In this document: positions 4,073 to 51,470 of the stretch, piece by piece | Numbering within the stretch: position 1 is the stretch's first letter | How the letters are laid out: every line of letters starts with the position of its first letter | From: Shigella phage ESH35 | Length of the DNA stretch: 64,000 nucleotides | Sequence record: ON528745 | Direction: 5' to 3' (one strand) | Translations under genes and position numbers: made by a program | The notes under the pieces: model-generated | The model's database searches: none | What the model saw: the letters and a program-made list of their open reading frames with translations, nothing else | What the model was told of the DNA's origin: nothing

Positions 4073-5074
4073 ATGACTCGTAACGAATATATCAAATCAT
4101 TCAATAGCGTTATTGATGATAAAGCTATACCGATGTTTGGACAAAATAGCGTTCTTTCTATTATCAATCAATGGCTCAATAGTGTTGATGCAGGTATTGT
4201 TTCTTCTGCTAAATTTATTCATGAAATTCGTAAAATTTCTAGCCGTGTAGATAAAGATAATATCAAGAAAACCTTTAAAGAGTCTCGTCTTCTTTCATAT
4301 TTGGTTAATCGGGATATTCTTGGTAATTTTGGGAAAGAAATTAAACGAACCAAAGATGTAGTAGGATATAATTGGTTCGGTGATGTTAATTCTTATCATC
4401 TTAATAATAAAGAAGACCCTGAGAATATTTTTACTCGTCGTTGGATTAGTAATTTCAGACTTTTCAAAGGACAAATTCTAAAATCAGCTTCTAAATTATG
4501 TTATGGCGATTATCGTCAAATTCATCCTTTGGCTTCTGATATGATTATCGTAAAAGAATATGAGCTTGATGAAAATAAAGTATCTATTTTTGTGAATTAT
4601 GGATTTTTTACACCAGAAACTAACCAAAAGAATATTAATAAATTTTTCTCAATTGCTAGCACTATAACTCGTCAATTAGAGACCGCATTACTTTGTATGG
4701 AAACAGTAGAAAATATTCATACTTATCCTTTTAAGAATATATGCGGTTGGGAAGGATATAAAATTATAATTAGCCTTCGTGAAGTGAAATGTGCGTACTC
4801 ACCGACTGATAAAGAAATTTACCAACAAAAATGTGAAGAAATTGTGAATACTCCTAAAGAAGAAACTACCCTTGAGGAACTAATGGAATGTCTTGACGAT
4901 TCACCTGAACCGGTAGAAATTCGTCCAGAAGTTATTGCACTAGAAAAAGCTTATAAAGAAGTTCTAGAAATTTCTAATAAAGCACAGAAAGAATATGAGC
5001 AGGCTAAAAGGATTTGGGAAGAATCTGTTAATCGCTTGGATCGTCTTGAACAAGCTTTACAGTTAATTAAGTAA
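4073..5074 (+). CDS. hypothetical protein with C-terminal coiled coil (family member 3)
   Basis: Track ORF 4022..5074 trimmed to ATG (index 18) after GAGGAGATTATT; early promoter GTTTAC..TATAAT upstream; C-terminal coiled coil. Confidence 0.6.
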   Translation: MTRNEYIKSFNSVIDDKAIPMFGQNSVLSIINQWLNSVDAGIVSSAKFIHEIRKISSRVDKDNIKKTFKESRLLSYLVNRDILGNFGKEIKRTKDVVGYNWFGDVNSYHLNNKEDPENIFTRRWISNFRLFKGQILKSASKLCYGDYRQIHPLASDMIIVKEYELDENKVSIFVNYGFFTPETNQKNINKFFSIASTITRQLETALLCMETVENIHTYPFKNICGWEGYKIIISLREVKCAYSPTDKEIYQQKCEEIVNTPKEETTLEELMECLDDSPEPVEIRPEVIALEKAYKEVLEISNKAQKEYEQAKRIWEESVNRLDRLEQALQLIK

Positions 5075-12471: not shown

Positions 12472-12672
12472 ATGAATCCTGAATCTAAATTATCGCAACG
12501 AATTGCTGAAGCTCGTCGCCAGTTCTTTGAAAATATGATAGCCCAGGGTATTGATGACGAAGTTTTTCTGAACTGGTTTTGGAATCACAAATATTCAAAA
12601 TGCGCAGGAGCAATATTAATATCAGCCGCAATGATGTACGAAGGCTGGAAGGGTGCCAAACAGTTTAGCTAA
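12472..12672 (+). CDS. hypothetical protein
   Basis: 66-aa ORF followed directly by GGGCTTCGGCCC terminator. Confidence 0.45.
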   Translation: MNPESKLSQRIAEARRQFFENMIAQGIDDEVFLNWFWNHKYSKCAGAILISAAMMYEGWKGAKQFS

Positions 12673-21755: not shown

Positions 21756-21783
21756 TTTACACTAAAACTTGAATGAGGAAATT

Positions 21784-22743
21784 ATGATTACCGTAAATGA
21801 AAAAGAACACATTCTTGAACAGAAATATCGTCCATCTACTATCGATGAATGTATTCTTCCCGCCTTTGATAAAGAAACCTTTAAATCTATTACAAGTAAA
21901 GGTAAGATTCCACATATTATTCTTCATTCTCCTTCTCCAGGAACAGGTAAAACAACTGTAGCAAAAGCATTGTGTCATGATGTAAATGCTGATATGATGT
22001 TTGTGAATGGGTCAGATTGTAAAATTGATTTCGTTCGTGGTCCTTTGACTAATTTTGCCAGCGCCGCTTCATTTGATGGTCGTCAAAAAGTAATCGTTAT
22101 TGATGAATTTGACCGTTCAGGGTTAGCAGAGTCTCAGCGACATCTTCGTTCCTTTATGGAAGCTTATAGTTCAAACTGCAGTATTATTATTACTGCTAAC
22201 AATATTGATGGTATTATTAAACCGCTTCAGTCACGCTGTCGAGTTATTACATTCGGTCAACCAACTGATGAAGATAAAATTGAAATGATGAAGCAGATGA
22301 TTCGTCGATTAACTGAAATCTGCAAGCATGAAGGAATTGCTATAGCTGATATGAAAGTTGTAGCAGCTTTGGTTAAAAAGAATTTTCCTGATTTTCGTAA
22401 AACTATTGGTGAGCTCGATAGTTATTCATCTAAAGGTGTTTTGGATGCTGGTATTTTATCACTGGTTACTAACGATCGTGGTGCTATTGATGATGTTCTT
22501 GAATCTCTCAAAAATAAAGATGTTAAACAGCTCAGAGCTTTAGCGCCAAAATATGCAGCTGATTATTCGTGGTTCGTAGGTAAACTTGCCGAAGAAATCT
22601 ATACACGCGTAACTCCACAAAGTATTATTCGTATGTATGAAATTGTTGGTGAAAATAACCAGTATCACGGAATTGCGGCTAATACTGAATTACATTTAGC
22701 ATATCTTTTCATTCAATTAGCATGCGAAATGCAGTGGAAGTGA
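21784..22743 (+). CDS. 44: clamp loader large subunit gp44 (AAA+)
   Basis: Track ORF trimmed to [11 protein letters not shown] (319 aa); Walker [11 protein letters not shown]; arginine finger SRC. Confidence 0.95.
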
Positions 22744-23979: not shown

Positions 23980-26676
23980 ATGAAAGAATTTTATATCTCT
24001 ATCGAAACAGTCGGAAATAATATTGTTGAACGTTATATTGATGAAAATGGAAAGGAACGTACCCGTGAAGTAGAATATCTTCCGACTATGTTTAGGCATT
24101 GTAAGGAAGAGTCAAAATACAAAGACATTTATGGTAAAAATTGTGCTCCTCAAAAATTTCCATCAATGAAAGATGCACGAGACTGGATGAAACGAATGGA
24201 AGACATTGGTCTCGAAGCTCTCGGTATGAACGATTTTAAACTCGCTTATATCAGTGATACATATGGTTCAGAAATTGTTTATGACCGAAAATTTGTTCGT
24301 GTAGCTAACTGTGACATTGAGGTTACTGGTGATAAATTTCCTGACCCAATGAAAGCAGAATATGAAATTGATGCTATCACTCATTATGATTCAATTGACG
24401 ATCGTTTTTACGTCTTTGATTTGTTGAATTCAATGTACGGTTCAGTATCAAAATGGGATGCAAAGTTAGCTGCTAAGCTTGACTGTGAAGGTGGTGATGA
24501 AGTTCCTCAAGAAATTCTTGACCGAGTAATTTATATGCCATTTGATAATGAGCGTGATATGCTCATGGAATATATTAATCTCTGGGAACAGAAACGACCT
24601 GCTATTTTTACCGGTTGGAATATTGAGGGATTTGACGTTCCGTATATCATGAATCGTGTTAAAATGGTTCTCGGTGAACGTAGTATGAAACGCTTCTCTC
24701 CAATCGGTCGAGTAAAATCTAAACTAATTCAAAATATGTACGGTAGCAAAGAAATTTATTCTATTGATGGCGTATCTATTCTTGATTATTTAGATTTATA
24801 CAAGAAGTTCGCATTTACTAATTTGCCATCGTTCTCTTTGGAATCAGTTGCTCAACATGAAACCAAAAAAGGTAAATTGCCGTACGATGGTCCTATTAAT
24901 AAACTTCGTGAGACTAATCATCAACGATACATTAGTTATAACATCATTGACGTAGAATCAGTTCAAGCAATTGATAAAATTCGTGGGTTTATCGATCTAG
25001 TTTTAAGTATGTCTTATTACGCTAAAATGCCTTTTTCTGGTGTAATGAGTCCTATTAAAACTTGGGATGCTATTATTTTTAACTCACTGAAAGGTGAACA
25101 TAAGGTTATTCCTCAACAAGGTTCGCACGTTAAACAGAGTTTTCCAGGTGCATTTGTGTTTGAACCTAAACCGATTGCTCGTCGATACATTATGAGTTTT
25201 GACTTGACGTCTCTGTATCCTAGCATTATTCGTCAGGTTAACATTAGTCCTGAGACTATTCGTGGGCAGTTTAAAGTTCATCCAATTCATGAATATATCG
25301 CAGGAACAGCTCCTAAGCCAAGTGATGAATATTCTTGCTCTCCGAATGGATGGATGTATGATAAGCACCAAGAAGGTATCATTCCAAAGGAAATCGCTAA
25401 AGTATTTTTCCAGCGTAAAGATTGGAAAAAGAAAATGTTCGCGGAAGAAATGAATGCCGAAGCTATTAAAAAGATTATTATGAAAGGTGCAGGGTCTTGC
25501 TCAACTAAACCAGAAGTTGAACGATATGTTAAGTTCAATGATGATTTCTTAAACGAATTATCGAATTACACTGAATCTGTTCTTAATAGTCTGATTGAAG
25601 AATGTGAAAAAGCTGCTACACTCGCTAACACAAATCAGCTGAACCGTAAAATTCTTATTAACAGTCTTTATGGTGCTCTTGGTAATATTCATTTCCGCTA
25701 CTATGATTTGCGAAATGCTACTGCTATCACAATTTTCGGTCAAGTCGGTATTCAGTGGATTGCTCGTAAAATTAATGAGTATCTAAATAAAGTATGTGGA
25801 ACTAATGGTGAAGATTTCATCGCAGCAGGTGATACTGATTCGGTATATGTTTGTGTAGATAAAGTTATTGAAAAAGTAGGTCTTGACCGCTTTAAAGAAC
25901 AAAATGATTTAGTTGAATTCATGAATCAGTTCGGTAAGAAAAAGATGGAACCTATGATTGATGTTGCATATCGTGAGTTATGTGATTATATGAATAATCG
26001 CGAGCATCTGATGCATATGGACCGTGAAGCTATTTCTTGTCCTCCGCTTGGTTCAAAGGGTGTTGGTGGATTTTGGAAAGCGAAAAAACGTTATGCTCTG
26101 AACGTTTATGATATGGAAGATAAGCGATTTGCTGAACCACATCTAAAAATCATGGGTATGGAAACTCAGCAGAGTTCAACACCAAAAGCAGTACAAGAAG
26201 CTCTCGAAGAAAGTATTCGTCGTATTCTTCAAGAAGGTGAAGAGTCTGTCCAAGAATATTACAAGAACTTCGAGAAAGAATATCGTCAACTTGACTATAA
26301 AGTTATTGCTGAAGTAAAAACTGCGAACGATATAGCGAAATATGATGATAAAGGTTGGCCAGGATTTAAATGCCCGTTCCATATTCGTGGTGTGCTAACT
26401 TATCGTCGAGCTGTTAGCGGTTTAGGTGTAGCTCCAATTTTGGATGGAAATAAAGTAATGGTTCTTCCATTGCGTGAAGGAAATCCATTTGGTGACAAAT
26501 GCATTGCTTGGCCGTCGGGTACAGAACTTCCAAAAGAAATTCGTTCTGACGTACTGTCTTGGATTGACTACTCAACTTTGTTCCAAAAATCGTTTGTTAA
26601 ACCGCTTGCGGGCATGTGTGAATCGGCTGGTATGGACTATGAAGAAAAAGCTTCGTTAGACTTCCTGTTTGGCTGA
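23980..26676 (+). CDS. 43: DNA polymerase gp43 (family B, with 3'-5' exonuclease)
   Basis: 898 aa; Exo I DIE, polymerase motifs DxxSLYPS and YGDTDS; translational operator hairpin upstream. Confidence 0.97.
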   Translation: MKEFYISIETVGNNIVERYIDENGKERTREVEYLPTMFRHCKEESKYKDIYGKNCAPQKFPSMKDARDWMKRMEDIGLEALGMNDFKLAYISDTYGSEIVYDRKFVRVANCDIEVTGDKFPDPMKAEYEIDAITHYDSIDDRFYVFDLLNSMYGSVSKWDAKLAAKLDCEGGDEVPQEILDRVIYMPFDNERDMLMEYINLWEQKRPAIFTGWNIEGFDVPYIMNRVKMVLGERSMKRFSPIGRVKSKLIQNMYGSKEIYSIDGVSILDYLDLYKKFAFTNLPSFSLESVAQHETKKGKLPYDGPINKLRETNHQRYISYNIIDVESVQAIDKIRGFIDLVLSMSYYAKMPFSGVMSPIKTWDAIIFNSLKGEHKVIPQQGSHVKQSFPGAFVFEPKPIARRYIMSFDLTSLYPSIIRQVNISPETIRGQFKVHPIHEYIAGTAPKPSDEYSCSPNGWMYDKHQEGIIPKEIAKVFFQRKDWKKKMFAEEMNAEAIKKIIMKGAGSCSTKPEVERYVKFNDDFLNELSNYTESVLNSLIEECEKAATLANTNQLNRKILINSLYGALGNIHFRYYDLRNATAITIFGQVGIQWIARKINEYLNKVCGTNGEDFIAAGDTDSVYVCVDKVIEKVGLDRFKEQNDLVEFMNQFGKKKMEPMIDVAYRELCDYMNNREHLMHMDREAISCPPLGSKGVGGFWKAKKRYALNVYDMEDKRFAEPHLKIMGMETQQSSTPKAVQEALEESIRRILQEGEESVQEYYKNFEKEYRQLDYKVIAEVKTANDIAKYDDKGWPGFKCPFHIRGVLTYRRAVSGLGVAPILDGNKVMVLPLREGNPFGDKCIAWPSGTELPKEIRSDVLSWIDYSTLFQKSFVKPLAGMCESAGMDYEEKASLDFLFG

Positions 26677-26687
26677 TAGAATAAATC

Positions 26688-26711
26688 TAGGGACCTCCGG
26701 GTCCCTTTTTC
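26688..26711 (+). terminator. intrinsic terminator
   Basis: GGGACCTCCGGGTCCC + TTTTTC after gene 43. Confidence 0.65.
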
Positions 26712-26779: not shown

Positions 26780-26859
26780 TTTTCACAAAACTGTTTACAA
26801 GACTGTTCTTCTGTGGTACTATACAACTATCAACTACTGATACAGATTTGGAGAATAAA
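26780..26859 (+). promoter_or_regulatory. early promoter/leader cassette copy B
   Basis: TTTTCACAAAA UP-like, GTTTACAAGACTGTTCTTCTGTGGTACTATACAACTATCAACTACTGATACAGA leader. Confidence 0.6.
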
Positions 26860-27096
26860 ATGAAAATTGTTATGGGATGCTTAGCAGTTTGTTTAGTTGC
26901 ATTAGTAGCAGTTCCATTTGTTAGTGTTGAAAATGATACTCAACCTGTGATTAAATCTAGCACCGTTATTCACACTAATGGTAAAATATCAGTTAAAATT
27001 GATGATAATCTTCATATGAATACTAATGGAACGTTGGGTGTTCAATTAGGTAATACCTGTGTAAGCACTACTGGAGTAATTACTACTTGTATTTGA
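26860..27096 (+). CDS. small secreted protein (signal peptide)
   Basis: Track ORF 26848 (TTG) trimmed to ATG after GGAGAATAAA; N-terminal MKIVMGCLAVCLVALVAVPFVSV signal-like. Confidence 0.55.
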   Translation: MKIVMGCLAVCLVALVAVPFVSVENDTQPVIKSSTVIHTNGKISVKIDDNLHMNTNGTLGVQLGNTCVSTTGVITTCI

Positions 27097-27106
27097 GGAA
27101 ATTATT

Positions 27107-27487
27107 ATGAAAATCGCTATTTTGGTTATTGCATTAGGTCTTACTGGCTGTGTAGCTCAAGGACCGGTAGTAAATCAATCTGATGTAGGAAAAATTGTAA
27201 ACTGTTCAAGCAAATTTTATAATCCTAATGTTAAGTGTTATAAAGAAGCTCCAAAACAGACAGTAGAACAGATGCAGGCGAATTTTGACGAAGCTATTCG
27301 CCCAGATGAATCTGCTCAAGCATATCGTAATTCAGATGTAATTACACGCGAAGAAAAAATTGAAAACTACTGCGCCGAAATTTGGGCTAATTGGGCTAAT
27401 AATTACCAATGGCGTACTGGTAAAAATGCTCCGATGGAGTATGTAGTGAATTCTTATAATTCATGTGTAAAAAATTTGACTAAGTGA
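27107..27487 (+). CDS. putative lipoprotein
   Basis: 126 aa; N-terminal MKIAILVIALGLTGC lipobox (L-T-G-C). Confidence 0.6.
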   Translation: MKIAILVIALGLTGCVAQGPVVNQSDVGKIVNCSSKFYNPNVKCYKEAPKQTVEQMQANFDEAIRPDESAQAYRNSDVITREEKIENYCAEIWANWANNYQWRTGKNAPMEYVVNSYNSCVKNLTK

Positions 27488-27494
27488 GGAAAAC

Positions 27495-27746
27495 ATGGAA
27501 ACTTTAGTAGCAGGTTCAATTTTTATGGTTTTAGTTTCAGGTGTGTTGGCTATTATTATATACATGCTTCCATGGTTCATCGCCTTGATGCGTGGGTCAA
27601 AATCAACAGTAGGAATCTTTTTCACGTCTTTACTGTTTAACTGGTCAATTATTGGTTGGTTTATTACATTTATTTGGTCAATTGCGGGTGAAACTAAAAA
27701 GTCTGCACAACCAAATCAGGTAATTATCATCAGAGAGAAGGAATGA
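27495..27746 (+). CDS. imm: Imm-like two-helix membrane protein (superinfection immunity)
   Basis: 83 aa (T4 Imm length), two hydrophobic helices, position between 43 and 42. Confidence 0.55.
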   Translation: METLVAGSIFMVLVSGVLAIIIYMLPWFIALMRGSKSTVGIFFTSLLFNWSIIGWFITFIWSIAGETKKSAQPNQVIIIREKE

Positions 27747-27892
27747 AAAGCAAAATTATAGCAGTGTTGCTTTTAATCTTGATGATTATAATAAGTATAT
27801 ACTATAGTGTAACGGTTCCTCTTATGATTCCAACTATTATTTTAGGTTGGGGTTTATTACTGTTACAAGTTAAATATGAATGTATCAATTGA
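27743..27892 (+). CDS. small hydrophobic protein
   Basis: Not in track; about 49-aa ORF read by eye, ATGA overlap with upstream stop; coordinates approximate. Confidence 0.3.
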   Translation: MKSKIIAVLLLILMIIISIYYSVTVPLMIPTIILGWGLLLLQVKYECIN

Positions 27893-27899
27893 GGTTTAA

Positions 27900-28640
27900 A
27901 TGATTAGTGACTCTATGACAGTTGAAGAAATCCGTCTTCATTTGGGGCTTGCATTAAAAGAAAAAGATTTCGTAGTTGATAAAACTGGTGTTAAAACTAT
28001 TGAAATTATTGGCGCATCATTTGTAGCAGATGAACCGTTTATTTTTGGCGCTCTTAATGATGAATACATTCAGCGTGAACTTGAATGGTATAAATCTAAG
28101 AGCTTGTTTGTTAAAGATATTCCAGGTGAAACACCAAAGATTTGGCAGCAGGTAGCATCTTCTAAAGGCGAAATTAACTCGAATTATGGTTGGGCTATCT
28201 GGTCAGAAGATAACTATGCCCAGTATGATATGTGTTTAGCTGAACTTGGTCAAAATCCTGATTCTCGACGTGGTATCATGATTTATACTCGTCCATCCAT
28301 GCAATTTGACTACAATAAAGATGGTATGTCAGATTTCATGTGTACGAATACAGTACAGTACCTGATTCGTGATAAGAAAGTCAATGCAGTAGTAAGCATG
28401 CGTTCAAATGACGTGGTCTTCGGATTCCGTAATGATTATGCATGGCAAAAATACGTATTAGATAAATTAGTATCTGATTTGAATGCAGGTGATTCAACTC
28501 GTCAGTATAAAGCAGGTTCCATTATATGGAATGTCGGGAGCCTTCATGTGTATTCCCGTCATTTTTATTTGGTTGACCATTGGTGGAAAACTGGTGAAAC
28601 ACATATTGCGAAAAAAGATTATAACGGTGAGTGGAAATGA
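27900..28640 (+). CDS. 42: dCMP hydroxymethylase gp42
   Basis: 246 aa (T4 gp42 length), thymidylate-synthase-like, conserved position. Confidence 0.9.
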   Translation: MISDSMTVEEIRLHLGLALKEKDFVVDKTGVKTIEIIGASFVADEPFIFGALNDEYIQRELEWYKSKSLFVKDIPGETPKIWQQVASSKGEINSNYGWAIWSEDNYAQYDMCLAELGQNPDSRRGIMIYTRPSMQFDYNKDGMSDFMCTNTVQYLIRDKKVNAVVSMRSNDVVFGFRNDYAWQKYVLDKLVSDLNAGDSTRQYKAGSIIWNVGSLHVYSRHFYLVDHWWKTGETHIAKKDYNGEWK

Positions 28641-29479
28641 TTCAATTCGTAATTCCAAGCTATCAACGCGTAGGGGCAGTTTCTGCCCTTGATATGTTTC
28701 CATCTGATTATGAACCGCATATTGTAGTACGTGAACACGAAGAAAAAGCTTATTATGACGCTTACGGGTCTAGAGCTAAAATTATAACTATTCCTGATGA
28801 TGTTAACGGAATTGCTGGTACTCGTAAAGCAATTACTGATATGTATGCAGGTCAACGAATTTGGATGATTGATGATGATACTACTATTTGTATGAGTTCA
28901 ATGCGAAAGAAAGATGATCGTCGCTGTGTAGATAAAATTAATCAATTAACTCGTGAACAGTTCTATGAATTGATTCAATACGTTAAAGATGCCATGGATT
29001 GCGGTTATTATCATGGCCATGCTCGTCTACCTATTTTTAAAATTACTTCATCTTGGGGTAATTATCGTGAAAATTCATATGGATTCACGAATACTTGGTA
29101 TGACCTTGGAAAACTTACAACAGAACAAATTGGGTATGGAAAAATTGATTTATGCGAAGATATGTATGCATTTCTCAATTTAATTAATCAAGGTTATCCG
29201 CATTTGGCCTTGTTCAAATATCTGGTTGTATCTGGAAAAGCACAGGCTCCGGGCGGGTGCAGTTCAATTCGTAGTAATTCAAAACATAATAGAGCTCTTG
29301 AGCAAATCAATAGAGAGTTTCCAGAGCAAGCTCGTTGGAAAACTTCTAATATTGAAAAACGAAAATCGTTGGGTGAAGAAGACGAGCCATTAAAGGTTCT
29401 TCGCATGTGTGTTTCGCGCAAAGAAAAATCAGAAGCATTTCATAAGTTTAATGCTATTCATCCAATAGCAGTTGATTAA
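28631..29479 (+). CDS. GT-A-type glycosyltransferase (DxD motif) in the locus where T4 has beta-gt
   Basis: 282 aa; RIWMIDDDTT DxD motif; no similarity to remembered T4 beta-gt. Confidence 0.6.
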   Translation: MEMIQFVIPSYQRVGAVSALDMFPSDYEPHIVVREHEEKAYYDAYGSRAKIITIPDDVNGIAGTRKAITDMYAGQRIWMIDDDTTICMSSMRKKDDRRCVDKINQLTREQFYELIQYVKDAMDCGYYHGHARLPIFKITSSWGNYRENSYGFTNTWYDLGKLTTEQIGYGKIDLCEDMYAFLNLINQGYPHLALFKYLVVSGKAQAPGGCSSIRSNSKHNRALEQINREFPEQARWKTSNIEKRKSLGEEDEPLKVLRMCVSRKEKSEAFHKFNAIHPIAVD

Positions 29480-49078: not shown

Positions 49079-49282
49079 ATGAAATCATATAAAGTAAATT
49101 TAGAACTTTTTGATAAAGCAGTTCATCGAGAATATAGAATCATTCAACGCTTTTTCGATATGGGAGAAGCCGAAGAATTTAAAAACCGCTTTAAAGATAT
49201 TAGAGATAAAATTCAATCCGACACTGCAACTAAAGATGAACTACTAGAAGTTGCTGAAGTTATTAAGCGTAATATGAATTAA
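49079..49282 (+). CDS. hypothetical protein (rIIA.1 position)
   Basis: 67-aa ORF after early promoter GTTTAC..TATAAT. Confidence 0.5.
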
Positions 49283-49292
49283 TGAGGAAATT

Positions 49293-51470
49293 ATGATTAT
49301 CACCACTGAAAAAGAAACAATTCTTGGTAATGGTTCTAAATCAAAAGCATTTAGCATCACAGCATCTCCTAAAGTATTTAAAATTCTGTCATCTGATTTG
49401 TATACAAACAAAATTCGCGCAGTTGTTCGTGAATTGATTACCAACATGATTGATGCCCATGCTCTCAATGGAAATCCTGAAAAATTTATCATTCAAGTTC
49501 CTGGACGTTTAGATCCACGATTTGTTTGTCGAGATTTTGGTCCGGGTATGAGTGATTTTGATATTCAGGGTGATGATAATTCTCCTGGGTTATATAATTC
49601 ATACTTCAGTTCATCTAAGGCTGAATCTAACGATTTCATTGGCGGATTTGGTTTAGGTTCTAAATCTCCGTTTAGTTATACTGATACGTTTAGTATTACT
49701 TCGTATCATAAAGGTGAAATTCGTGGTTATGTAGCTTACATGGATGGTGATGGTCCACAAATTAAACCTACATTCGTGAAAGAAATGGGTCCAGATGATA
49801 AAACTGGTATTGAAATCGTAGTTCCAGTTGAAGAAAAAGACTTTAGAAACTTTGCTTATGAAGTTTCTTATATCATGCGACCGTTCAAAGATTTGGCTAT
49901 TATTAATGGTCTTGACCGCGAAATTGATTATTTTCCGGATTTTGATGACTATTACGGTGTAAATCCAGAAAGATACTGGCCTGATCGTGGTGGATTATAT
50001 GCTATCTATGGTGGTATTGTTTATCCTATCGATGGTGTTATTAGAGACCGTAACTGGCTAAGCATTCGCAATGAAGTGAATTACATTAAATTTCCAATGG
50101 GTTCACTTGATATTGCTCCATCTCGCGAGGCTCTTTCACTGGATGATCGTACTCGTAAAAATATTATTGAACGAGTTAAAGAACTCAGTGAGAAAGCATT
50201 TAATGAAGATGTAAAACGATTTAAAGAATCTACATCTCCCCGTCACACATATCGTGAATTGATGAAGATGGGGTATTCTGCTCGAGATTATATGATTAGT
50301 AATTCAGTCAAATTCACGACTAAAAATCTGTCATATAAAAAGATGCAGAGCATGTTTGAACCTGACAGTAAGTTATGTAATGCAGGCGTGGTGTATGAAG
50401 TAAATCTTGACCCTCGACTGAAACGCATTAAGCAAAGTCATGAAACATCAGCCGTTGCGTCAAGTTATCGTCTGTTTGGTATTAATACAACAAAAATTAA
50501 TATCGTTATTGATAATATTAAAAATCGTGTTAATATTGTCCGTGGATTAGCACATGCGCTAGATGATAGTGAATTTAATAACACTTTAAATATTCATCAC
50601 AATGAGCGTCTTCTGTTTATTAATCCGGAAGTAGAATCGCAGATTGATTTACTACCTGATATTATGGCAATGTTTGAAAGTGATGAAGTTAACATTCATT
50701 ATTTGTCAGAAATTGAAGCTTTAGTTAAAAGCTATATTCCAAAGGTAGTTAAAAGTAAAGCTCCTCGTCCTAAAGCTGCTACAGCATTTAAGTTTGAAAT
50801 TAAAGATGGGCGTTGGGAAAAAGAGGAATTATTTACACTTACGTCAGAAGCAGATGAAATTACTGGTTATGTAGCGTATATGCATCGTTCTGATATTTTC
50901 TCTATGGATGGTACTACATCACTTTGTCATCCATCTATGAATATTTTGATTCGTATGGCTAATCTTATTGGCATTAATGAATTTTATGTTATTCGTCCGC
51001 TTTTACAGAAAAAGGTAAAAGAACTCGGTCAGTGCCAATGTATTTTTGAAGCTTTGCGTGATTTATATGTAGATGCTTTTGATGATGTAGATTATGATAA
51101 GTATGTAGGTTATTCAAGTTCAGCTCAACGATATATTGATAAAATTATCAAGTATCCTGAACTAGATTTTATGATGAAGTACTTCAGTACAGATGAAGTT
51201 TCTGAAGAATATACACGACTTGGTAATATGGTTAGTTCATTACGCGGTGTGTATTTCAATGGTGGAAAAGATACCATCGGTCATGATATCTGGACAGTAA
51301 CTAATCTCTTTGATGAATTATCACGTAATGCTTCAAAAAATAGTGATAAAATGGTTGCTGAGTTTACCAAGAAATTCCGTATTGTTTCCGACTTCATCGG
51401 ATATCGCAACTCTTTAAGTGATGATGAAGTTTCCCAAATCGCTAAAACTATGAAGGCCCTTGCGGCCTAA
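49293..51470 (+). CDS. rIIA: RIIA protein
   Basis: 725 aa, exact T4 RIIA length, adjacent to 312-aa RIIB. Confidence 0.9.

Follow-up and report, generated by a model that had tools for sequence, protein, structure and literature searches.

The subject of this analysis is a 64,000-nucleotide stretch of Shigella phage ESH35 (sequence record ON528745; the whole stretch is called the window below), a T-even (Tequatrovirus) genome, and within it two small open reading frames (ORFs) that separate the DNA polymerase gene 43 from the superinfection-immunity gene imm. An earlier note on this DNA had described them as an inserted pair, one encoding a secreted protein and the other a lipoprotein, with a plausible role in superinfection exclusion or receptor masking and with no equivalent known from T4. 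Both ORFs are found on the + strand at 26860-27096 (ORF1) and 27107-27487 (ORF2), directly upstream of a gene at 27495-27746 for a Pfam Imm_superinfect protein. ORF2 has the 126 residues given in the note, whereas ORF1 has 78, the 79 of the note counting the stop codon. The gene order is 43, ORF1, imm.1 (ORF2), imm, a 49-residue ORF and 42:

23980-26676: gene 43 (DNA polymerase), which heads the 43-42 region
26860-27096, + strand: ORF1, 78 residues plus stop, phrog_4189, a variable accessory gene recognised by its ORF, its PHROG match and its selection pattern
27107-27487, + strand: imm.1 (ORF2), 126 residues, Pfam DUF5481 and phrog_1754
27495-27746, + strand: imm, 83 residues, inner-membrane superinfection-immunity protein (PF14373, phrog_1039)
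27743-27892, + strand: gene for a 49-residue hydrophobic peptide, phrog_3610, overlapping the imm stop codon (ATGA)
27900-28640: gene 42, which follows the four tightly packed small ORFs

A Shine-Dalgarno sequence stands ahead of each of the four small ORFs. The imm product was recognised by the Pfam model Imm_superinfect (PF14373) with an E value of 7.7e-16 and 58.2 bits (cut-off 27.9), a family to which neither the ORF1 nor the ORF2 protein showed a match. Imm has 83 residues, with two hydrophobic segments and hardly any periplasmic domain. The gap between imm.1 and imm, which lie on the same strand, is 7 nucleotides, and imm is the presumed partner of its neighbour.

ORF2 can be equated with the T4 gene imm.1 with near certainty. 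Its product is identical to T4 Imm.1 (NP_049661) at 123/125 residues (98%), and it matched Pfam PF17578 (DUF5481; 237.6 bits, cut-off 27, E 1.7e-71) and phrog_1754 with an E value of 3e-44. The gene order in the T4 RefSeq genome (NC_000866) is 43, imm.1, imm and 42, which puts the gene in the same place between 43 and imm, and the lipobox stands at the same position, reading LAGC in T4 and LTGC in the window. The two phages differ upstream of the gene: in the window, imm.1 is preceded by ORF1 and has its own GAGG Shine-Dalgarno sequence, whereas T4 imm.1 has inherited the leader and start codon of ORF1. The assertion that T4 has no equivalent between 43 and imm consequently holds for ORF1, which T4 lacks, and fails for the lipoprotein. 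The latter proved to be a conserved core gene, 98% identical in T4 and at least 95% identical in about 500 Tequatrovirus records. A tblastn search with Imm.1 returned 656 phage records, 501 of them at 95% identity or more (Tequatrovirus) and 155 at about 33% (Mosigvirus). A HMMER scan of 1.84 billion representative proteins yielded six Imm.1 relatives, and a word-indexed protein search yielded near-identical clusters only. Neither gene is new to the catalogues: imm.1 has carried its name and annotation in T4 for decades, and ORF1 is a PHROG family in hundreds of genomes. The RefSeq product name for T4 imm.1 (positions 4637-5014 of our T4 locus L001) is "iduronate sulfatase", which has been copied into other phage records; this name is unsupported, since the protein matches Pfam DUF5481 only and no NCBIfam family.

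Selection on the locus was estimated with the Nei-Gojobori method across eight Tequatrovirus genomes, as the nonsynonymous rate (dN) and its ratio to the synonymous rate (dN/dS); gene 43 was left out owing to a frame problem:

ORF1: dN 0.070, dN/dS 0.38
imm.1: dN 0.004, dN/dS 0.035
imm: dN 0, dN/dS 0
49-residue ORF: dN 0.021, dN/dS 0.66 (very few changes)
gene 42 (N-terminal part): dN 0.023, dN/dS 0.10

Imm.1 is tightly constrained, under strong purifying selection. The family matches (DUF5481 and phrog_4189), combined with purifying selection, argue that neither ORF1 nor ORF2 is a chance ORF.

The proximity of imm.1 to imm extends well beyond Tequatrovirus. Same-strand adjacency of imm and a member of the Imm.1 family was found in seven Tevenvirinae genera, in the following arrangements:

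Tequatrovirus: imm.1 directly upstream of imm
Mosigvirus (SSE1): imm.1, imm and sp contiguous, relocated between genes 41/dmd and 61
Gelderlandvirus (S16): LAGC lipoprotein immediately upstream of imm
Moonvirus: LTGC lipoprotein (CPT_Moon48) immediately upstream of imm
Klebsiella T4-like phages: LTGC lipoprotein immediately upstream of imm
Dhakavirus (IME08): imm first, then an LSGC lipoprotein downstream
Gaprivervirus (SP18): imm first, then a 47-residue homologue of the 49-residue ORF of the window, then an LSGC lipoprotein

Matches to phrog_1754 had E values of 2e-15 (Klebsiella), 4.5e-52 (IME08), 4.7e-47 (SP18) and 5e-46 (S16). Homology of S16 gp27 was set through this last match, its hhalign comparison with a small Imm.1 profile being weak (18%), and the Moon lipoprotein is tied to the family only via its 50% identity to S16 gp27. 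A second collection, drawn from IMG/VR, comprised 80 Imm-encoding loci, of which 26 are T4-like (every contig of at least 84 kb plus two fragments) and 54 are smaller and non-T4-like. An Imm.1-family ORF was present on the same strand in 26/26 T4-like contigs, at a distance of -25 to 146 nucleotides from imm, upstream of it in 17 and downstream in 9; the small peptide directly follows imm in 13 of these T4-like loci. The pairing of Imm.1 with imm is specific to T4-like phages, and it survives both relocation and inversion of the gene order. The 49-residue ORF is 47/49 identical in T4 (L001 4228-4377, - strand), where it is unannotated in RefSeq NC_000866, and judging from its conservation it is a third small membrane gene of the imm module. 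Separately, IMG/VR contig 3300049904_000059 (locus L059), alone in this among the 54 non-T4-like loci, carries at 2015-2440 a lipobox ORF, MKKTFIAIAVAGLLAGC..., which lies immediately upstream of an imm homologue with a 28-nucleotide gap and could be an independent case of lipoprotein/imm pairing.

Export signals had been claimed for both proteins and were recovered in both, as a lipobox in Imm.1 and as a 21-residue hydrophobic segment in ORF1. The N-terminus of Imm.1, MKIAILVIALGLTGC, comprises a signal peptide (residues 1-14) with the lipobox LTGC and agrees with the PROSITE PS51257-type lipobox rule, with Cys15 as the lipidation site and Val at +2. In an 11-member family alignment, the sole invariant or near-invariant columns are K2, L12, G14, C15, Y38, C89 and C120, the lipobox columns being the best conserved. 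The mature protein contains a flexible tether, a conserved FYNPNVKCY motif and four further cysteines, at positions 33, 44, 89 and 120. The residue at +2 is V, G, S, Q or A in the members seen and never Asp, so sorting by the Lol system to the inner leaflet of the outer membrane is expected. From these signals, export of both Imm.1 and ORF1 to the periplasm is very probable, and Imm.1 is probably a Lol-sorted outer-membrane lipoprotein hanging into the periplasm. A metagenomic relative (P0004), whose nearest isolated phage in the collection is only 47% identical, has its lipobox Cys replaced (LAGF) and carries a canonical Sec site, AHA↓SD, so that it seems to be a soluble form in the periplasm. 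Because this relative exchanged the lipobox for a Sec-type signal, the periplasmic location appears to be the constant feature of the family.

The family is narrow, so no deep alignment was available for structure prediction. The AlphaFold2 model of Imm.1 had a mean predicted local distance difference test score (pLDDT) of 64.5, with a disordered N-terminal tether and a confident C-terminal helical hairpin (residues 81-104 and 110-125; pLDDT about 85-89) in which Cys89 and Cys120 lie on separate helices. Structure prediction, one of the checks suggested in the earlier note, thereby delivered a helical hairpin for Imm.1 and a beta domain for ORF1, though the quality of both models is moderate and neither gave a significant fold match; PDB sequence-profile searches, NCBIfam and PADLOC were likewise empty for both proteins.

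The promoter cassette that had been placed upstream of the two ORFs is real and consists of the gene-43 hairpin and a repeated T4-type early promoter:

26689-26706, + strand: rho-independent terminator hairpin of gene 43 (AGGGACC-TCCG-GGTCCCT, then a T run), from the terminator scan
26794-26822, + strand: T4-type early promoter (TTTACA, 17 nucleotides, TACTAT, with an upstream TG), from the promoter scan

The hairpin is G+C-rich, folds as RNA with -13.9 kcal/mol (z -2.56) and is annotated as a terminator in homologous phage records. The promoter is a member of repeat families D1-D3, which have 6-8 copies in the window (repeat copies at 1034, 11793, 33011, 45296, 53283, 53789 and 55795), and the record of phage fPS-90 labels the homologous site "predicted early promoter". 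The terminator scan found no terminator-like site on the + strand between 26706 and 28671, for which reason ORF1, imm.1, imm, the 49-residue ORF and 42 are treated as one early unit, predicted to be driven by the promoter at 26794-26822. A sigma-70-like match (10/12; TTGTAA, 17 nucleotides, TATAAT) was also seen within imm.1 at 27195-27223 (+ strand), probably by chance, since the number of such matches is not above the shuffled expectation. The record of phage SA21RB annotates a middle promoter for gene 42 within the 49-residue ORF.

This arrangement resembles the promoter-early stem-loop (PeSL) cassettes known from phages of the T4 type (Arbiol et al. 2010, PMC2839356; Comeau et al. 2014, PMC4122927), which Comeau et al. 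associated with the shuffling of adaptive ORFs. The element 5' of ORF1 combines a stem-loop, an early promoter of the TTTACA-N17-TAYWAT type that fits the PST/T4 PeSL consensus TTTACW-N17-TAYWAT (PMC4122927), a Shine-Dalgarno sequence and an ATG start codon; it is repeated in the genome, and it flanks a variable ORF that differs among close relatives. The stem-loop lies about 85 nucleotides 5' of the -35 element and serves also as the gene-43 terminator.

The idea of an insertion between 43 and imm had the direction of the event wrong. An alignment of the window, T4 and AR1 showed that T4 is without exactly 247 bp, the stretch between the ATG start codons of ORF1 and imm.1, and the boundaries of this segment coincide with two direct repeats:

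26860-26867, + strand: left copy of the 8-bp direct repeat ATGAAAAT, at the ORF1 start (T4 deletion boundary)
27107-27114, + strand: right copy of the 8-bp direct repeat ATGAAAAT, at the imm.1 start (T4 deletion boundary)

In T4, the ORF1 leader TGATACGGATTTGGAGAATGAAATG is fused straight onto the imm.1 reading frame. Since T4 keeps this leader, we infer that T4 lost ORF1 by deletion rather than that ESH35 gained it by insertion, and the parsimonious account would be a 247-bp deletion between the two ATGAAAAT repeats in the T4 lineage. The difference between T4 and the window is in this respect unlike a PeSL-to-PeSL exchange; it corresponds to another route named by Comeau et al., through "small randomly homologous sequences" (PMC4122927). 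The framing as an insertion is ordinary and in part mistaken.

The same slot is occupied differently in other phages. T2-type phages have another leader and an unrelated 83-residue ORF there (RB51ORF048, phrog_18567; 31 records at 95% identity or more), and they share the imm.1 ribosome-binding site of the window, GAGGAAATTATTATG. Subtraction, not a record-by-record count, leaves about 150 Tequatrovirus records that lack both ORF1 and the T2-type ORF. In Dhakavirus, an ORF1 homologue is found in the neighbourhood of nudE, e and denV, a long way from imm and without imm.1, and the TGGAGAATAAAATGAAA leader accompanies it at that locus too. The two ORFs do not, then, form a pair: T4 has no ORF1, T2 has an unrelated ORF in its stead, and Dhakavirus carries ORF1 at another locus without imm.1. 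Its distribution identifies ORF1 as a separate, mobile accessory gene in a variable slot behind the early promoter.

ORF1 matched phrog_4189 with an E value of 4e-30. It is 81-96% identical to the Tequatrovirus members of this family (AR1_049 and wV7 proteins) and about 62% identical to the more distant dhabil_182-like proteins of Dhakavirus; the family consists of hypothetical proteins and carries no annotation. Homologues occur in 325 phage records, with identities of 80% or more in 318 and of 60-80% in the other 7. The start codon was set at the ATG used by annotated homologues, which has GGAG 6 nucleotides upstream; a mechanical ORF list begins the frame at TTG 26848. That ORF1 is a non-functional chance or decaying frame between the promoter and imm.1 is very improbable. 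The gene is dispensable, being missing from T4 and T2, some records contain truncated or N-terminally rearranged versions, and its dN/dS is above that of its neighbours, all of which would suit such a frame; against it stand a dN/dS of 0.38 among Tequatroviruses and of 0.19 in the comparison with Dhakavirus (where dS is about 1.3), the well-spaced Shine-Dalgarno sequence, a full-length frame intact in 296/325 records, and a C-terminal motif, NLHxN(T/P)NG(T/S)LGVQxGNTC, that is nearly invariant even in the Dhakavirus copy. By these measures ORF1 is a functional gene, though a dispensable one that evolves fast.

The ORF1 protein begins with MK-IVMGCLAVCLVALVAVPFVSV, a 21-residue hydrophobic stretch (residues 3-23; maximum Kyte-Doolittle 19-residue mean 2.85) followed by acidic residues. 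This signal or anchor segment is connected by a linker to a small beta domain (residues 34-78) that contains Cys67 and Cys77; in the AlphaFold2 model (mean pLDDT 66.8), the N-terminal helix, the linker and a six-stranded beta domain (pLDDT about 80) are recovered. Candidate signal-peptidase I sites are VSV↓E, which is poor at -1, and ALVA↓VPF, chosen by eye only within a conserved LVALxAVPF stretch. A cleaved signal and an N-in/C-out anchor are equally possible readings of this N-terminus, and the C-terminal 55 residues, with Cys67 and Cys77, should face the periplasm in either case. Two other assignments were rejected. A lipoprotein is excluded because VMGC (residues 4-7) lies too near the start, LAVC has Val at -1, and Cys7 and Cys11 are Val and Ser in the Dhakavirus copies; a signal-anchor-release (SAR) protein is excluded because the segment is too hydrophobic. 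Some ORF1 variants (P0012, P0017 and P0019) carry one or two tandem 7-residue duplications (LAVCLVA / ACLVALA) that lengthen the hydrophobic segment from 21 to about 28-35 residues, and one of the duplication-bearing variants gains an LAAC motif and has the automatic UniRef name "Lipoprotein".

One specific proposal counts ORF1 among the accessory genes for host range or counter-defence in T4-type hyperplastic regions, with an action on a component of the host envelope that benefits the primary infection and is not aimed at competing phages. It accords with the presence/absence polymorphism of the gene, with a dN some 17 times that of imm.1 (0.070 vs 0.004), with its movement between loci together with its own leader, and with its place directly behind a PeSL-type cassette. 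On the other side, ORF1 has neither homology nor a fold match to known counter-defence proteins, and in the accessible part of the supplementary files of the accessory-gene screen by Silas et al. neither ORF1 nor Imm.1 is found, so that ORF1 is not among the accessory genes of that part. We consider this proposal rather unlikely, and every specific role for ORF1 is at best as doubtful. A dispensable, lineage-specific envelope function, for example competitor exclusion or host adaptation, is the most likely description.

Taken as a whole, the locus suggests that Imm.1 is a periplasmic, outer-membrane-tethered partner within the immunity module of Imm, with ORF1 as a mobile accessory gene of the envelope that stands apart from it, a reading to which we assign a probability of about 0.5. 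Four small envelope proteins would be made from one early transcription unit ahead of gene 42. The Imm.1 prolipoprotein would be lipidated at Cys15, cut by signal peptidase II and carried to the inner leaflet of the outer membrane, where a tether of about 15-20 residues would hold in the periplasm a helical domain stapled by a Cys89-Cys120 disulfide. Imm.1, Imm and probably the 49-residue peptide would then form a periplasmic/outer-membrane arm that blocks the passage of a second T-even phage's DNA across the envelope. Imm.1 might engage the incoming tail tip or tube, or it might position or stabilise Imm at injection sites; a conserved target is expected for it, either the phage injection machinery or Imm itself, and not a strain-specific receptor. 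ORF1 would contribute a small beta domain that faces the periplasm, with the hydrophobic N-terminal segment serving either to anchor or to release it. The conserved linkage to imm lends support to a superinfection-exclusion role for Imm.1. The narrower proposition that Imm.1 acts with Imm, and probably with the 49-residue peptide, against DNA entry by superinfecting T-even phages is tentative and falls somewhat short of even odds. Still less likely is the fuller picture in which Imm.1, Imm and the 47-49-residue peptide constitute a three-part, envelope-spanning immunity device of T4-like phages, with ORF1 as an exchangeable plug-in specificity or exclusion factor.

Known envelope proteins of phages offer partial parallels. 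T4 Imm and Spackle, the latter a periplasmic inhibitor of the gp5 lysozyme (PMC7677548), are early, small and envelope-targeted, as Imm.1 is predicted to be; here imm.1 is by its layout co-transcribed with imm, and in Mosigvirus imm.1, imm and sp form one contiguous group. A two-component spanin (Rz/Rz1) was rejected, since Imm.1 is predicted to be helical and not proline-rich and Imm has no long coiled-coil periplasmic domain. The likeness to spanins is limited to an outer-membrane lipoprotein being encoded beside an inner-membrane protein.

Several observations weigh against a partnership of Imm.1 with Imm, or against parts of the scheme as a whole. No Imm.1 relative was found within 2.5 kb of imm in the 54 non-T4-like IMG/VR loci, and a lipobox ORF lies beside imm in 1/54 of them (1/221 neighbouring ORFs vs 4/2683 in the background). 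Enterobacter phage vB_VIPECLOM01, a Karamvirus, has a phrog_1754 lipoprotein (LAGC) between 43 and 42 (24780-25220 of its record), and the Imm hidden Markov model finds nothing in the first 50 kb, which span the 43-42 and 41-61 regions. Counts by host name (27 vs at most 9) suggest that in at least 18 Enterobacter phage records the lipoprotein occurs with no detectable match to T4 Imm. The Karamvirus and the Enterobacter records indicate that the lipoprotein can occur without Imm, and the presence of Imm.1 is not sufficient evidence of Imm function. For ORF1, the end of the hydrophobic segment has poor -1 residues (V/I), with which both a cleaved signal and a permanent anchor are compatible. 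Lu and Henning reportedly found in 1989 that plasmid-borne imm alone excludes T4, from which it follows that Imm.1 would not be strictly required for Imm function. The searchable literature contained no experiment or functional study on Imm.1 or ORF1; the one paper there that mentions Imm.1 uses it as a T4-group marker and merely assumes an exclusion role "to be proven" (PMC5885020). In the Karamvirus, the slot upstream of the lipoprotein holds a 74-residue, cytoplasmic-looking protein.

The main rival explanation is that Imm.1 has an envelope function independent of Imm, such as guarding the peptidoglycan or outer membrane of the infected cell against lysis from without (as Spackle does), tuning of lysis inhibition or periplasmic counter-defence, with the adjacency to imm reflecting only shared early timing and membrane targeting. 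The Karamvirus lipoprotein in the 43-42 slot without detectable Imm would be expected under this explanation, as would the reported activity of Imm alone from a plasmid; the Mosigvirus pair also adjoins sp, which suggests that early envelope genes cluster generally. The adjacency to imm, by contrast, outlasts relocation in Mosigvirus and inversion in Dhakavirus and Gaprivervirus and is found in 26/26 T4-like IMG/VR contigs, which exceeds what simple co-timing predicts for genomes that have many early units. We regard independence from Imm as somewhat unlikely.

A further explanation, close to that of the earlier note, is that both ORFs form a newly inserted module for receptor masking or superinfection exclusion that acts like Llp of T5 or Cor of lambdoid phages. 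T5 Llp and the Cor proteins of phi80 and N15 are outer-membrane lipoproteins that target FhuA and block re-infection, and they are specific for the phage's own receptor. Both ORF products are predicted to be exported early proteins encoded beside imm, and Imm.1, like Llp and Cor, is a predicted outer-membrane lipoprotein; it shares with them a similar size, an expected orientation towards the periplasm and an origin in the infecting phage. It differs from them in showing no detected homology and in being almost invariant in T-even phages of differing receptor use. T2, T4 and relatives use different outer-membrane receptors, yet Imm.1 is 97.6-98% identical between T2 and T4 and at least 95% identical across about 500 Tequatroviruses. 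Because it is near-invariant in phages with different receptors, receptor masking, as put forward in the earlier note, is unlikely for Imm.1. A newly inserted module is further contradicted by the presence of Imm.1 in T4 and by the lack of linkage between ORF1 and imm.1 (T4 without ORF1, T2 with a replacement, Dhakavirus with ORF1 elsewhere), and no annotated exclusion family was matched in Pfam, PHROG, NCBIfam or PADLOC. An Llp-like action of Imm.1 is possible in outline, membership in the Llp/Cor group is unsupported, and the inserted module as a whole is improbable.

Elsewhere in the window, a gene for a T2/T6-type beta-glucosyl-HMC-alpha-glucosyltransferase (28631-29479, + strand) overlaps the end of gene 42, where T4 has beta-gt, and the homing endonuclease gene segA, which precedes uvsX in T4, is missing from ESH35. 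A 46-nucleotide translation-initiation region is repeated at 21772-21817 and 49281-49326 with 83% identity, one copy lying at the start of the clamp-loader gene 44, and the terminator hairpin AAGGGCTTCGGCCCTT occurs in three copies, at 12661, 52409 and 52641.

The ORF1 slot provides a clean, small example of the gain and loss of accessory genes behind early-promoter cassettes in T-even phages. The more useful result is a lipoprotein family of unassigned function that lies beside imm in T4-like phages whatever the order or location of the genes, with Karamvirus as the sole exception found. How Imm keeps DNA out is an old question that dates back to the identification of the gene in 1989. The conserved module of lipoprotein, Imm and peptide offers a modest but tangible clue to the working of Imm, and it makes Imm.1 and the 49-residue peptide left unannotated in T4 concrete candidate partners of Imm. 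If the partnership is real, an outer-membrane-tethered Imm.1 would supply the periplasmic part that has long been missing from any account of how so small a protein as Imm stops DNA ejection half-way.

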